DNA of 64,000 nucleotides from Escherichia coli (lineage in GTDB: Bacteria; Pseudomonadota; Gammaproteobacteria; Enterobacterales; Enterobacteriaceae), in the NCBI RefSeq assembly GCF_016026235.1, contig NZ_CP065614.1. One strand, 5' to 3'. Numbering within the stretch: position 1 is the first letter of the stretch; every line of letters starts with the position of its first letter. Position numbers: made by a program. This document shows positions 34,301-37,300 of the stretch, in pieces.

Positions 34301-37300
34301 TCATTGTCTTTCAGGTGGTTATATGGCCCGTTCAGCTAAACCCCGTAAACGTAAACCCGCCTCTCAAAGAAGCAAACTTCCCCGCTATGTCGTGAAGCTT
34401 CACGAAGATGATTTTTTTGACGAAGAAGACGCAGAAGTTCTGCGCTTTGATAGTTTTGACGATGCCGTTGAATGCTGCGCAGACCTGAATATTCCGTTCT
34501 TTGTGGATGCGGGAAACAAAAAGCTGGTCTTCTGGTTTGTACGTGTTGATGACGAAGGGTATCCGGAAATCGCCCGCTGCACGGAGCGGGAATTTGCGAC
34601 CATTCTTTCCGGTATCAGCGCCGGCGGTATGTACTGCCCGGAGTGTGGCACGGTTCACTGGCCGGACGGAGTCGCCCCGCCCTTCTGATGCTTCCCCGTT
34701 TTGCCGATATCTTTCAGCAGGGAAACCGCTGGCTTAACTGGCTGGAGAAGCAGCCGGAAGGGGCAGTACGTCCGGTGGTGATTGAGTCGGTGACCAAAAT
34801 CATGGCGTGCGGGACCACACTGATGGGGTATACACAGTGGTGCTGTTCATCACCGGACTGTTGCCATACAAAAAAGGTCTGCTTCCGGTGTAAAAGCCGC
34901 TCCTGCCCGCACTGCGGGGTGAAGGCTGGCGCACAGTGGATACAGTATCTGCTGAGCCTGGTCCCCGACTGCCCATGGCAGCATATTGTGTTCACGTTAC
35001 CCTGCCAGTACTGGTCCCTGGTGTTCCACAACCGGTGGTTGCTGGCAGAGATTAGCCGCATTGCAGCGGATGTGATACTGGAAATCTGCCATCAGGCAGA
35101 TGTGGAGCCGGGGATATTCACGGTGATCCACACATGGGGGCGTGACCAGCAGTGGCATCCGCATATCCATTTATCGACAACTGCCGGTGGTGTGACGTCG
35201 GGCCACACCTGGAAAAATCTTCATTTTTACGCCCGTAAGGTGATGAGCATGTGGCGCTACCGGATAACACGGTTACTGTCACGGAAATACCCTGACCTGG
35301 TGATGCCAGATGCGCTGGCAGCAGAAGGAAGCAGTAAACGGGAATGGAATCGCTTCCTGGACACGCATTACCGCCGTGGCTGGAATGTCAACGTATCCCG
35401 GGTGATGGATAATGCCACCCATGTGGCGGTGTACTTTGGCTCTTACCTGAAAAAGCCACCGGTGCCGGTGAGTCGTCTGGAGCATTATGCCGGTCAGGAT
35501 GAAATCGGACTGCGTTACAACAGTCACCGAACAAAACGGGAAGAATACCTGTTGATGAGTGGAGATGAGTTCATGGAAAGGTTCTCCTGGCATGTGGCGG
35601 ATAAGGGGTTCCGTATGGTGAGGTACTACGGTTTTCTGAGTCCGGCGAAACGGCGGTTACTGGAAGAAGTGGTGTACATCATAACGGAGACAGTGAGAAA
35701 AACGGCGATGCAAATCACCTGGAGAGGGATGTATCAGAGGTTACTGAAGGTTGACCCGCTGAAGTGCGTGCTGTGCGGGAGTCAGATGCGTTTTACGGGG
35801 CTGAAGCGGGGCTACCGTCTGGCAGAGCAGGTCCTGATGCATGAGCCGCTGGCCCGGATGCGGTGGTGCGGCTGAGAGCCGCAGAGGGTAAGTAGCGTCC
35901 ATTTTGAGGGAAACGGAGCAAAAAACCGCCATTCATACCCTGAATCAATCAGAGCCATCCAGTTTAATCGTCGGTTCCGTTCATATGAGCAAAAGTGGTG
36001 TTGAAGAAACATCCGTTTTGTGGTGTTTTTTTAATCTTTTTGGGGTTTTAATTCCTATCGATGAACGGAAGACGTTCAGCATAATCCCCCGGAACAGCGT
36101 TTCCTCATTCAGCGGGGCAAGGATAAAGGGGTCCGCTTGGAATTCGGAAATTTTCCCACGCTAAGAGAATTGAGTTAACGAGTGGTTACGTCCAGGCCAG
36201 CTAACTCACTGAACGTAAAGGCTGTACGAAATGTTCTGACCGTCCGATAACCGTCTGGCTTACTTCCGTACATTCCCTTGCGTGGATGTACAGAATTGTA
36301 CGATTTCGGACACCAAAACCGCTGTTATCCCGCCATCTTGGCGATTCCTGAAAGTCATTTATCTAAAAAATAGTCTTAACGTGGTTTATTTTCCGAATTC
36401 CAAGCGGACCCCTCAATAGACAGCGTGAATATCGATGGTTGCGCCACAGGCATGAGCATATTTTGTCAAAGTTTTCATGCTGGCCCCTAAAGGGTTACTT
36501 TCCAGGCGACTGATGGCTGACGGGCGTAACCCCATTCGTTCGGCCAGTGCTGACTTTGTTAATCCCGCTTTTTCTCTCATTTCGTATAACATTTCCACCA
36601 TCTCCAGTTCTTTGTCAGCATCCTCATACCCTTTGACAGCTTCTGGAGTACTGAGTAGTTTTTGCTTTACCTGGCTGAATGGAACACCTTTTACTTTCAT
36701 CAGTTCATCTCCTTCAGACGCATCCTGGCAATTTCAATAGCTTTCGTTGGTGTCTTTTGCGTTTTTTTCACAAATGCATGCAGCAGATAGATTTCGTTAC
36801 CCGTTGCATAAGCGTACAGTGTCCTTGCGATATTTTTATCCCCGACTCTCAGTTCAAAAAGCCCTCCGCCAATTACACGGCTGTGAGGCATTTTCATTTT
36901 GTTACCTTCCTGTTCCAGCCGTTCAATCAGTCTGGTCATACGACCACGCAGATTGTCTGGTAATTCTAGAAGTTCATCCAGTGCGGCCGGGTGAGTAATC
37001 ACATTAAACATATTATAGCCTCCAGAATGACAAAATACACTAAAACAGGAAAATTGCGCAAACAGTAAATTTCATCAATAAATGAAAATACACTCTGAGT
37101 TCGGAGGGGGGCAACTGGAGAAGAGGGATTTTTTGATGCCGCGTTAGCGGCATGGAAGGCGGCACTCCGTTGTTGCATATGGCACAGGAGTAAAACCGCC
37201 GAAGCCCGGCGTAAGCCGGTACTGATTGACAGATTTCACCTTACCCCCGTTACTTTATTCGTACCCCTTATAATGGGGTGTTAGCCAGCCAGACCCGGCA

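Follow-up and report, generated by a model that had tools for sequence, protein, structure and literature searches.

We conclude with high confidence that the open reading frame at 34323..34688 (plus strand) of the window, i.e., the whole 64,000-nucleotide stretch of Escherichia coli DNA analyzed here, is orf121, the accessory gene of IS91, and that it resides in an intact ISEc37-type isoform of this insertion sequence on a virulence plasmid of the Shigella/EIEC type. The gene was described with IS91 (GenBank X17114; Mendiola et al., 1992) and its function has been reported since (Fauconnier et al., 2026; PMC13181058). The preliminary reading of a small accessory protein whose gene travels with the element is supported, although the ORF had not been recognized there as a gene described in 1992. 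Because orf121 was already described in 1992 and functionally shown in 2026, the finding is real but ordinary, and it adds nothing new about IS91 itself.

The preliminary description of a 121-amino acid ORF is borne out by the reading frame, which runs on the plus strand from an ATG at 34323 to a TGA at 34686-34688 and has a Shine-Dalgarno sequence (AGGTGG, 34313..34318, +) located 4 nt upstream of the ATG. A mechanical ORF list offered an upstream ATG at 34266 (140 amino acids); we reject this start and keep 34323, since the 34266 ATG lies within the assigned -35 hexamer of the orf121 promoter and upstream of the published -10 box. The peptide MARSAKPRKRK forms the N-terminus of all aligned homologues but one, a variant with a truncated N-terminus. 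Purifying selection acts on the gene: its dN/dS versus other lineages is 0.09-0.25 and a large protein database contains 232 homologues, hence it is not a chance reading frame. The product has a pI of 4.9 and, as initially noted, combines a basic N-terminus (10 K/R and zero D/E in residues 1-27) with an acidic core (20 D/E in residues 28-90). It contains five cysteines, namely the adjacent C51-C52, C86, C105 and C108. The CPEC motif that had been listed along with CxxC is present (C105-C108), yet there is no separate CxxC, as CPEC is itself the sole one.

The identification is carried by several features. The landmarks of Orf121 quoted in the literature are V49-x5-L55-x5-V61, V61-x6-L68-x6-V75 and C105-x2-C108 (Fauconnier et al., 2026; PMC13181058), and V49, L55, V61, L68, V75 and C105-x2-C108 are all found at these positions in the window protein. 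Its exact sequence is present in UniRef as 'IS91, orf2' (B0EYM8_ECOLX) and occurs on 984 contigs, while RefSeq labels it either 'hypothetical protein' or 'transposase.' The window protein thus shares with IS91 Orf121 its length of 121 amino acids, its slot between terIS and tnpA, the TGATG overlap, the -10 box of Porf121 and the quoted residues, and the surrounding elements are alike in length and end sequences. It differs as an isoform with Ser96 and with TTTCCG instead of TTGCCG at the -35 position of PtnpA; compared to the other IS91 lineages analyzed, 4-8 residues of Orf121 are different. At the nucleotide level, the element shares 99.3-99.9% identity with copies L001-L004, and 90.5-95.9% with other IS91 lineages. 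It also shares 99.3% identity with a plasmid copy of E. coli E110019 whose RefSeq annotation is 'IS91-like element ISEc37,' but in that copy orf121 is split into two short ORFs, whereas it is intact in the window. Since ISEc37 is reported to be 95% identical to IS91 X17114 (PMC3332091), IS91 and ISEc37 can be considered names for near-isoforms. An isoform of IS91 has been delineated as an element whose full-length nucleotide sequence is ≥95% identical to X17114.5 and whose TnpA is ≥95% identical to CAD30457.1 (PMC13181058); the relation of the window element to X17114 is indirect here, passing via the ISEc37-annotated copy (99.3%) and the 95% identity between ISEc37 and X17114 (PMC3332091). 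Like the ISEc37 of pECTm80 (PMC3332091), the window element adjoins a truncated Tn3-family tnpA. In agreement with the preliminary description, Orf121 is unlike the 90-amino acid ORF that precedes the window's other IS91-family tnpA, and homology between both is rejected (hhalign probability of 1%).

Based on the points where copies from other plasmids diverge in their flanks, we delineate a complete IS91-type insertion sequence (ISEc37-like isoform) of 1830 bp at 34233..36062 (+), a length that is the same in the other full-length copies compared and that is also the published length of IS91. On the left side, the flanks of independent copies differ right up to the terIS end tetranucleotide CTCG (34233..34236, +), which is the reported terIS cleavage site of IS91 (PMC13181058). 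This end is followed by a subterminal hairpin GCAGCC-TGAC-GGCTGC (34242..34257, +), whose 6-nt arms are perfectly complementary around a 4-nt loop and which is kept in an IS91-like relative with 72% identity. The orf121 start is situated 90 nt from the CTCG end, downstream of both this hairpin and the -10 box of Porf121. The ORF is therefore located inside the element and not outside its boundaries, in line with the earlier suggestion that it travels with an IS91 element. On the right side, independent copies share the oriIS end (…TTTTAATTCCTATCGAT; 36000..36062, +) and remain alike through ...CCTATCGAT and the next GAACGG before they diverge. We have placed the right end at 36062, a choice that gives a length of 1830 bp and makes GAAC, the next tetranucleotide, correspond to the GTTC target known from the literature. 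The flanking tetranucleotide is GTTC on the minus strand (36063..36066; GAAC on the plus strand), and IS91 targets beside oriIS are GTTC or CTTG (PMC13181058). With CTCG and a hairpin at terIS, GTTC at oriIS and no inverted repeats, the ends are those of the IS91 family, and comparison of the flanks reveals no target duplication. The same holds for the transposase: tnpA (34688..35875, +) encodes a 395-amino acid IS91-family HUH (Y2) transposase with an N-terminal zinc-binding domain, which matches the Pfam families Y2_Tnp (PF04986; 2.4e-39) and Zn_Tnp_IS91 (PF14319; 1.1e-18) and scores 288 bits against NCBIfam NF033538 'IS91 family transposase' (cut-off 125). The 34233..36062 unit is an intact IS91/ISEc37 copy that is probably mobile. 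The mere adjacency to the transposase and the RefSeq label 'hypothetical protein' could also suggest a passenger or flanking gene beside the mobile unit. The boundary comparison refutes this reading, to which we attribute a negligible probability: independent copies differ in their left flanks but are alike from 34233 on, 90 nt ahead of the ORF, and a diverged relative occurs three times in one genome, each copy enclosing the homologue within identical boundaries.

IS91 lineages with 90-96% identity carry a homologue of orf121 in this position and so do, as was to be checked, related IS91-like elements whose nucleotide identity goes down to 72%, the 72% relative being represented by three copies with identical boundaries in one genome. 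The family is narrow: of 1.84 billion representatives searched exhaustively with the profile, only 76 match, and almost all of these are fragments of orf121 or frameshift chimeras of it. The Orf121 profile also matches RanBP2-type zinc-ribbon repeats through its C-terminal motif; these matches with many repeated stretches share the CPxCG motif only and are not homologues. Within the window, tblastn returns matches to residues 75-100 at 50957-51034, 57979-58056 and 61474-61551 (minus strand), all of them on the strand opposite to large ORFs that are paralogous to each other; one of these ORFs is presumably an ipaH gene. In our judgment, all three sites go back to one chance match that paralogy has multiplied. 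A more distant allele of 115 amino acids (P0177 type; 29% amino acid identity) replaces the body of orf121 in IS91 backbones of 90-95% identity elsewhere, the exchanged slot spanning element nt ~128-455. This allele occupies the same position and retains a basic N-terminal peptide and the C52 and CPxCGTxHxP residues, but is six residues shorter and ends with TAA and a 3-nt spacer before the ATG, and thus lacks the TGATG overlap. A Pfam scan with this allele gives no match. In L013, a mosaic IS91 with the 115-amino acid allele, TnpA is 97.5% identical. The mosaic itself, with two alleles in one slot, is an observation; the window element carries the common 121-amino acid allele.

The expression signals correspond to those described for IS91. 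In a closely related IS91 isoform, orf121 and tnpA are co-transcribed from Porf121 in the terIS end, and translation of tnpA is coupled to orf121 by the TGATG overlap, which is conserved and enhances tnpA expression (PMC13181058). In the window, Porf121 (34261..34289, +) is composed of a putative -35 box TTGTCA (34261-34266), a 17-nt spacer and the -10 box TATAAA (34284-34289), the latter being the Porf121 box that was mutated experimentally (PMC13181058) and having the same offset in every lineage compared. A consensus promoter scan reports no promoter in the Porf121 region; as the published -10 box ends in A, this is not evidence of absence. The -35 position of the weak internal promoter PtnpA, located by the offset of the published box inside orf121, reads TTTCCG (34606..34611, +). 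The published box is TTGCCG (PMC13181058), a sequence shared by all other lineages checked, whereas TTTCCG is found in the window and the ISEc37-annotated copy and corresponds to Ser96 in place of Ala96. The TGATG stop/start overlap itself is found at 34686..34690 (+), TGA and ATG sharing one base, which specifies the earlier remark that the ORF abuts the tnpA start.

Experiments with IS91 isoform V1, which is not the window isoform, have shown that Orf121 lowers TnpA-dependent transposition as well as the insertion of bottom-strand single-stranded circles (PMC13181058). In mating-out assays, transposition decreases 8- to 8045-fold when tnpA is induced and 2- to 21-fold when it is uninduced, depending on the construct, and inhibition occurs both when orf121 is co-expressed with tnpA and when it is driven by a separate promoter (PMC13181058). 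In addition, one-ended transposition drops from ~50 to 18-32% in the presence of orf121, reflecting better termination at terIS (PMC13181058). By analogy, the Orf121 of the window is predicted to inhibit transposition and to reduce one-ended transposition. Could the protein be irrelevant, with translation of orf121 only feeding ribosomes to tnpA via TGATG and the gene housing the promoter and leader of tnpA? In support, removal of the overlap makes expression from Porf121 ~2.9-fold lower (PMC13181058), and in an early study, insertions in orf121 did not significantly change how often transposition occurred (Mendiola et al., 1992, as cited in PMC13181058). We consider this very improbable, as the amino acid sequence is constrained (see the dN/dS above), the Cys3His set and the basic tail persist in the 29%-identical allele, and Orf121 supplied in trans from an independent promoter still inhibits both transposition and one-ended transposition (PMC13181058). 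The authors of that study themselves draw the comparison with IS1 InsA and IS3-family OrfA (PMC13181058), which are likewise small proteins encoded upstream of, and co-expressed with, a transposase whose activity they damp. There is, however, no sequence relationship to Orf121. IS1 and IS3 use DDE transposases, inverted repeats and fusion proteins made by programmed frameshifting, whereas the ori and ter ends of IS91 are distinct and its transposase is a rolling-circle enzyme of the HUH type, and Orf121 also improves the accuracy of termination.

How Orf121 acts may be approached from its conserved residues. Across both alleles, C52, C105, P106, C108, G109, T110, H112 and P114 are invariant, and at the level of this motif, whose C-terminal part also matches zinc-ribbon repeats of the RanBP2 type in the profile, Orf121 may bind zinc, as was suggested at the outset. 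Searches for a known fold return no Pfam or NCBIfam match above cut-off for Orf121, a best E of 0.39 in a profile search of PDB sequences, and no Foldseek match at E <= 0.001 of the predicted structure against PDB and viral structures, the AlphaFold2 model (24-sequence alignment) being of moderate quality (pLDDT 69.6; pTM 0.54). We propose that Orf121 would be a small protein of alpha/beta type in which a single Cys3His zinc site (C52, C105, C108, H112) keeps the structure together, that its acidic core would bind TnpA stoichiometrically, and that its basic tail would touch DNA at the terIS/oriIS ends. Alternatively, and in our view possible but rather unlikely, Orf121 may not bind TnpA and may mainly be a competitor or repressor that binds the DNA ends like IS1 InsA, occupying terIS (with Porf121) and/or oriIS, blocking TnpA and repressing its own operon. 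The strongly basic N-terminal 27 residues and the overlap of Porf121 with the terIS region fit such a role, the effect on terIS accuracy suits a protein that marks this end, and it is one of the two options named by the authors (PMC13181058). The protein is nevertheless acidic overall, has no recognizable DNA-binding domain in Pfam/NCBIfam, and its inhibition persists when tnpA on a mini-IS is driven by Plac (PMC13181058); repression of Porf121 is thus not the whole effect. Excess TnpA overcomes Orf121 encoded in cis, an observation compatible with both the TnpA-binding and the end-binding model.

This analysis mainly adds an improved annotation: given the uninformative RefSeq label and the lack of a Pfam/NCBIfam model covering the protein, 'hypothetical protein' or 'transposase' can be replaced by IS91 regulator Orf121. 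The Cys3His set, the distant homologues and the 115-amino acid allele could guide biochemical work on the action of Orf121. If Orf121 is a trans-acting inhibitor, an allele swap could change cross-inhibition among co-resident IS91 copies. That the body of orf121 is an exchangeable module of IS91-group elements, whose swap alters which co-resident copies inhibit one another, is nonetheless a doubtful proposal at present, and a functional reading of the mosaic as immunity-type diversification is speculation. IS91-type elements mobilize adjacent virulence and resistance genes via one-ended transposition. Since Orf121 suppresses one-ended transposition, the intactness of orf121 bears on the likelihood that an element carries neighboring DNA along.

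The gene orf121 runs on the plus strand from an ATG at 34323 to a TGA at 34686-34688 and encodes 121 amino acids. The preliminary description of an acidic protein with a basic N-terminus is confirmed: Orf121 has a pI of 4.9, its residues 1-27 are strongly basic (10 K/R, zero D/E) and residues 28-90 contain 20 D/E. There are five cysteines (C51, C52, C86, C105 and C108) and two histidines (H27 and H112). The reported CPEC motif is present, but it is not separate from the reported CxxC motif, since both correspond to C105-P-E-C108. A mechanical ORF list also contains a 140-aa version from the ATG at 34266. 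This start was rejected based on three observations: MARSAKPRKRK opens all aligned homologues but one variant with a truncated N-terminus, an AGGTGG is located 4 nt upstream of the ATG at 34323, and, relative to the published -10 box, the ATG at 34266 lies upstream, inside the assigned -35 hexamer (34261-34266). This -10 box, TATAAA at 34284-34289 on the plus strand, is the hexamer of promoter Porf121 mutated by Fauconnier et al. (2026; PMC13181058); TTGTCA, 17 nt further upstream, is assigned from the sequence as its -35 box.

Both the gene family and the element to which this gene belongs are already known. A 121-codon orf121, first reported in 1992 together with the IS91 sequence, precedes the transposase gene tnpA in IS91 with the stop/start overlap TGATG (PMC13181058), and in the window the same TGATG joins orf121 to the start codon of the transposase gene that follows. 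All Orf121 residues quoted in that study (V49, L55, V61, L68, V75 and C105-x2-C108; PMC13181058) are found at their exact positions in the window protein. An exact-sequence look-up retrieves the protein as 'IS91, orf2' (UniRef B0EYM8_ECOLX, 984 contigs), while its RefSeq entry, WP_000124126.1, reads 'hypothetical protein'. The earlier reading of a small accessory protein is thus supported; its one omission is that the gene was already named and, in 2026, was given a function by experiment. The downstream tnpA (34688..35875, plus strand) encodes a 395-aa IS91-family HUH/Y2 transposase with Pfam matches to Y2_Tnp (2.4e-39) and Zn_Tnp_IS91 (1.1e-18) and a score of 288 bits against NCBIfam NF033538 (cut-off 125).

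The boundaries of the element were defined by comparing the window with three plasmid copies having different neighbors (L001, L002 and L003). The left flanks part ways directly upstream of CTCG at 34233 and the right flanks a few bases past ...CCTATCGAT at 36062, with an end-to-end distance of exactly 1830 bp in every copy compared. The published length of IS91 is likewise 1830 bp. In L003, the right flank appears to be the same junction broken after GAACG by another element, presumably an IS1 end, and is therefore not independent boundary evidence. With the left end at 34233 the ORF begins 90 nt inside the element, as the preliminary description had suspected. A perfect hairpin (GCAGCC-TGAC-GGCTGC, 34242-34257, plus strand) lies 5 nt inside the left end, terIS, and GAAC (GTTC on the other strand) adjoins the right end, oriIS. 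These features match the description of IS91, with a CTCG cleavage site and a single subterminal palindrome at terIS and an adjacent GTTC/CTTG target at oriIS (PMC13181058). On its left the element abuts a truncated Tn3-family transposase gene (33909-34232, minus strand), of which only the C-terminal part is left (DDE_Tnp_Tn3 profile positions 301-389 of 389) and whose reading frame extends into the IS as far as a chance ATG at 34304. Since the Tn3 gene is not continued to the right of the IS, this is not a simple IS91 insertion. Many plasmids of Shigella boydii and E. coli have the same junction.

Copies on virulence-type plasmids of Shigella dysenteriae and E. coli share 99.8-99.9% identity with the window element, and a copy on an E. 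coli E110019 plasmid, annotated in RefSeq as 'IS91-like element ISEc37', shares 99.3%. ISEc37, reported to have 95% identity with IS91 X17114, was found beside a truncated Tn3-like tnpA (PMC3332091), and the window element too lies beside one. Other IS91 lineages show 90.5% (L006), 92.6% (L007) and 95.9% (L008) identity, their Orf121 proteins differing from that of the window in 7, 8 and 4 residues, respectively. A difference is also seen in the weak internal promoter PtnpA, whose -35 box TTGCCG lies inside orf121 (PMC13181058): all other lineages compared carry TTGCCG at this offset, whereas the window (34606-34611) and the ISEc37-annotated copy have TTTCCG, giving Ser96 instead of Ala96. This difference may matter.

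Homologues of Orf121 do accompany related elements. A large protein database contains 232, assigned to Enterobacterales wherever named, with identity down to about 61% among the matches listed, and tblastn located orf121 in 1492 plasmid records, chiefly from E. coli and Shigella. When 1.84 billion representatives were searched exhaustively with a profile, only 76 matches emerged, mostly fragments or frameshift chimeras, indicating a narrow family. Genome GCA_014118665.1 contains three copies of an IS91-like element with 72% nucleotide identity to the window element (L009:2912-4727, and the same coordinates in L010 and L011). Each encodes a 118-aa Orf121 homologue (65% identical) that starts 89 nt from the left boundary and overlaps tnpA by one base, and all three have the same terIS hairpin as the window element; their right flanks read CAAG, CAAG and GGAC. 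In each copy tnpA is split into two called pieces (77 + 317 aa). The association of orf121 with IS91-like elements therefore reaches past the 95% isoform range covered in the published survey (PMC13181058).

In the IS91 variant V1, the main promoter of tnpA is Porf121 in the terIS end, and the orf121/tnpA overlap raises tnpA expression (PMC13181058). One could thus argue that orf121 merely provides translational coupling and that its product has no function. This is contradicted by purifying selection on orf121, with dN/dS values of 0.17 (versus L006), 0.09 (versus L007) and 0.25 (versus the 72%-identical relative) that are similar to those of tnpA (0.09-0.10), and by experiments in trans, in which orf121 under an independent promoter reduced transposition 8.6-fold (PMC13181058). 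In the native arrangement with tnpA the reduction was 20.7-fold uninduced and 8045-fold induced; the effect of cis-encoded Orf121 was overcome by excess TnpA, one-ended transposition fell from about half of the events to 18-32%, and insertion of the bottom-strand single-stranded circle was reduced (PMC13181058). We propose that Orf121 would bind TnpA directly while its basic tail would contact DNA at the element ends, which may slow initiation and integration and stabilize termination at terIS. An InsA-like competitor that itself binds terIS/oriIS DNA is a less likely alternative; direct binding to TnpA is favored by the stoichiometry dependence, the action in trans on a Plac-tnpA mini-IS and the acidic core.

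An AlphaFold2 model based on a 24-sequence alignment is of moderate quality (pLDDT 69.6, pTM 0.54); in it, a disordered basic tail is predicted ahead of a beta-beta-alpha-beta-beta-beta-alpha-beta-beta core. Foldseek searches with this model against PDB and BFVD gave zero matches at E <= 0.001, sequence profiles retrieved no solved relative, and Orf121 belongs to none of the Pfam or NCBIfam families. Matches of the CPxCG motif to zinc-ribbon knuckles are below threshold; in the profile search it also matches RanBP2-type repeats. Given the conservation of C52, C105, C108 and H112, a single Cys3His zinc site is a reasonable inference.

A strongly divergent allele exists elsewhere. From the 1.84-billion profile search came a single distant homologue of full length (P0177; 115 aa, 29% identical), and its 1815-bp contig (L013:1-1815) is itself a whole IS91. 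Compared with the window element, L013 is 90.6% identical over nt 1-127 and 95.4% over nt 456-1830, and its TnpA is 97.5% identical, but there is no nucleotide match in the orf121 body (element nt ~128-455). The 115-aa allele is also present in complete E. coli and Salmonella plasmids (L016:2196-3925; L017:2112-3928), where the right breakpoint is the same (element nt 456) and the backbone of these mosaic copies, as in L013, is 90-95% identical; the left backbone match is present in L013 and L017 and absent in L016. Here the stop and the tnpA start are 3 nt apart and do not overlap. Between the window and L013, dS is saturated in the ORF body but amounts to 0.14 in tnpA; this is recombinational replacement rather than gradual divergence. 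Both alleles retain the basic N-terminal peptide, F42, F45, A48, C52, I57 and W71, and C105-P-x-C108-G-T-x-H112-x-P114 is invariant across them. Plasmid records containing the 115-aa allele number 71, and 62 of 5426 complete E. coli genomes have it; the allele in the window is the common 121-aa one.

The window contains further traces of the family. A minus-strand fragment at 645-993, with 80% identity to the final 348 bp of the element (tnpA 3' end and oriIS), is what is left of a related IS91-like element. The window also has three copies or partial copies of another IS91-family transposase, which shares about 36% identity with IS91 TnpA, at 23148-24062 (plus), 44786-45895 (minus) and 52194-53273 (plus); the different C-terminus of the second (44744..45931) suggests truncation or rearrangement. 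The start of the third (tnpA 52149..53357, 36% identical) is overlapped by 20 nt by a 90-aa ORF with CTVC and CHTC motifs (51896-52168, plus strand). This ORF falls into no Pfam family and is not homologous to Orf121 (hhalign probability 1%), in line with the earlier remark that the two differ entirely. It has been stated that, within the family, an upstream gene of this kind occurs in IS91 alone; the presence of another small Cys-rich ORF ahead of an IS91-family transposase conflicts with this.

Directly to the right of IS91, two overlapping small ORFs of 103 and 95 aa (36413-37011, minus strand), whose counterpart region in related plasmids carries the annotation 'helix-turn-helix transcriptional regulator', look like a HigB/HigA-type toxin-antitoxin module. 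Tblastn with Orf121 residues 75-100 also gave minus-strand matches at 50957-51034, 57979-58056 and 61474-61551 (50% over 26 aa, E 0.001). These sites are antisense to large paralogous ORFs (49877..51604, which we take to be an ipaH gene, 56932..58629 and 60361..62085), and the matches are judged to be a single chance match repeated by paralogy.

In terms of annotation, the 'hypothetical protein' of public records is corrected to Orf121 and precise coordinates are now given for an intact IS91-type copy. As by-products, the analysis adds a conserved Cys3His ligand set as a candidate zinc site, a strongly divergent replacement allele, and evidence of orf121 homologues in more distant IS91-like elements.
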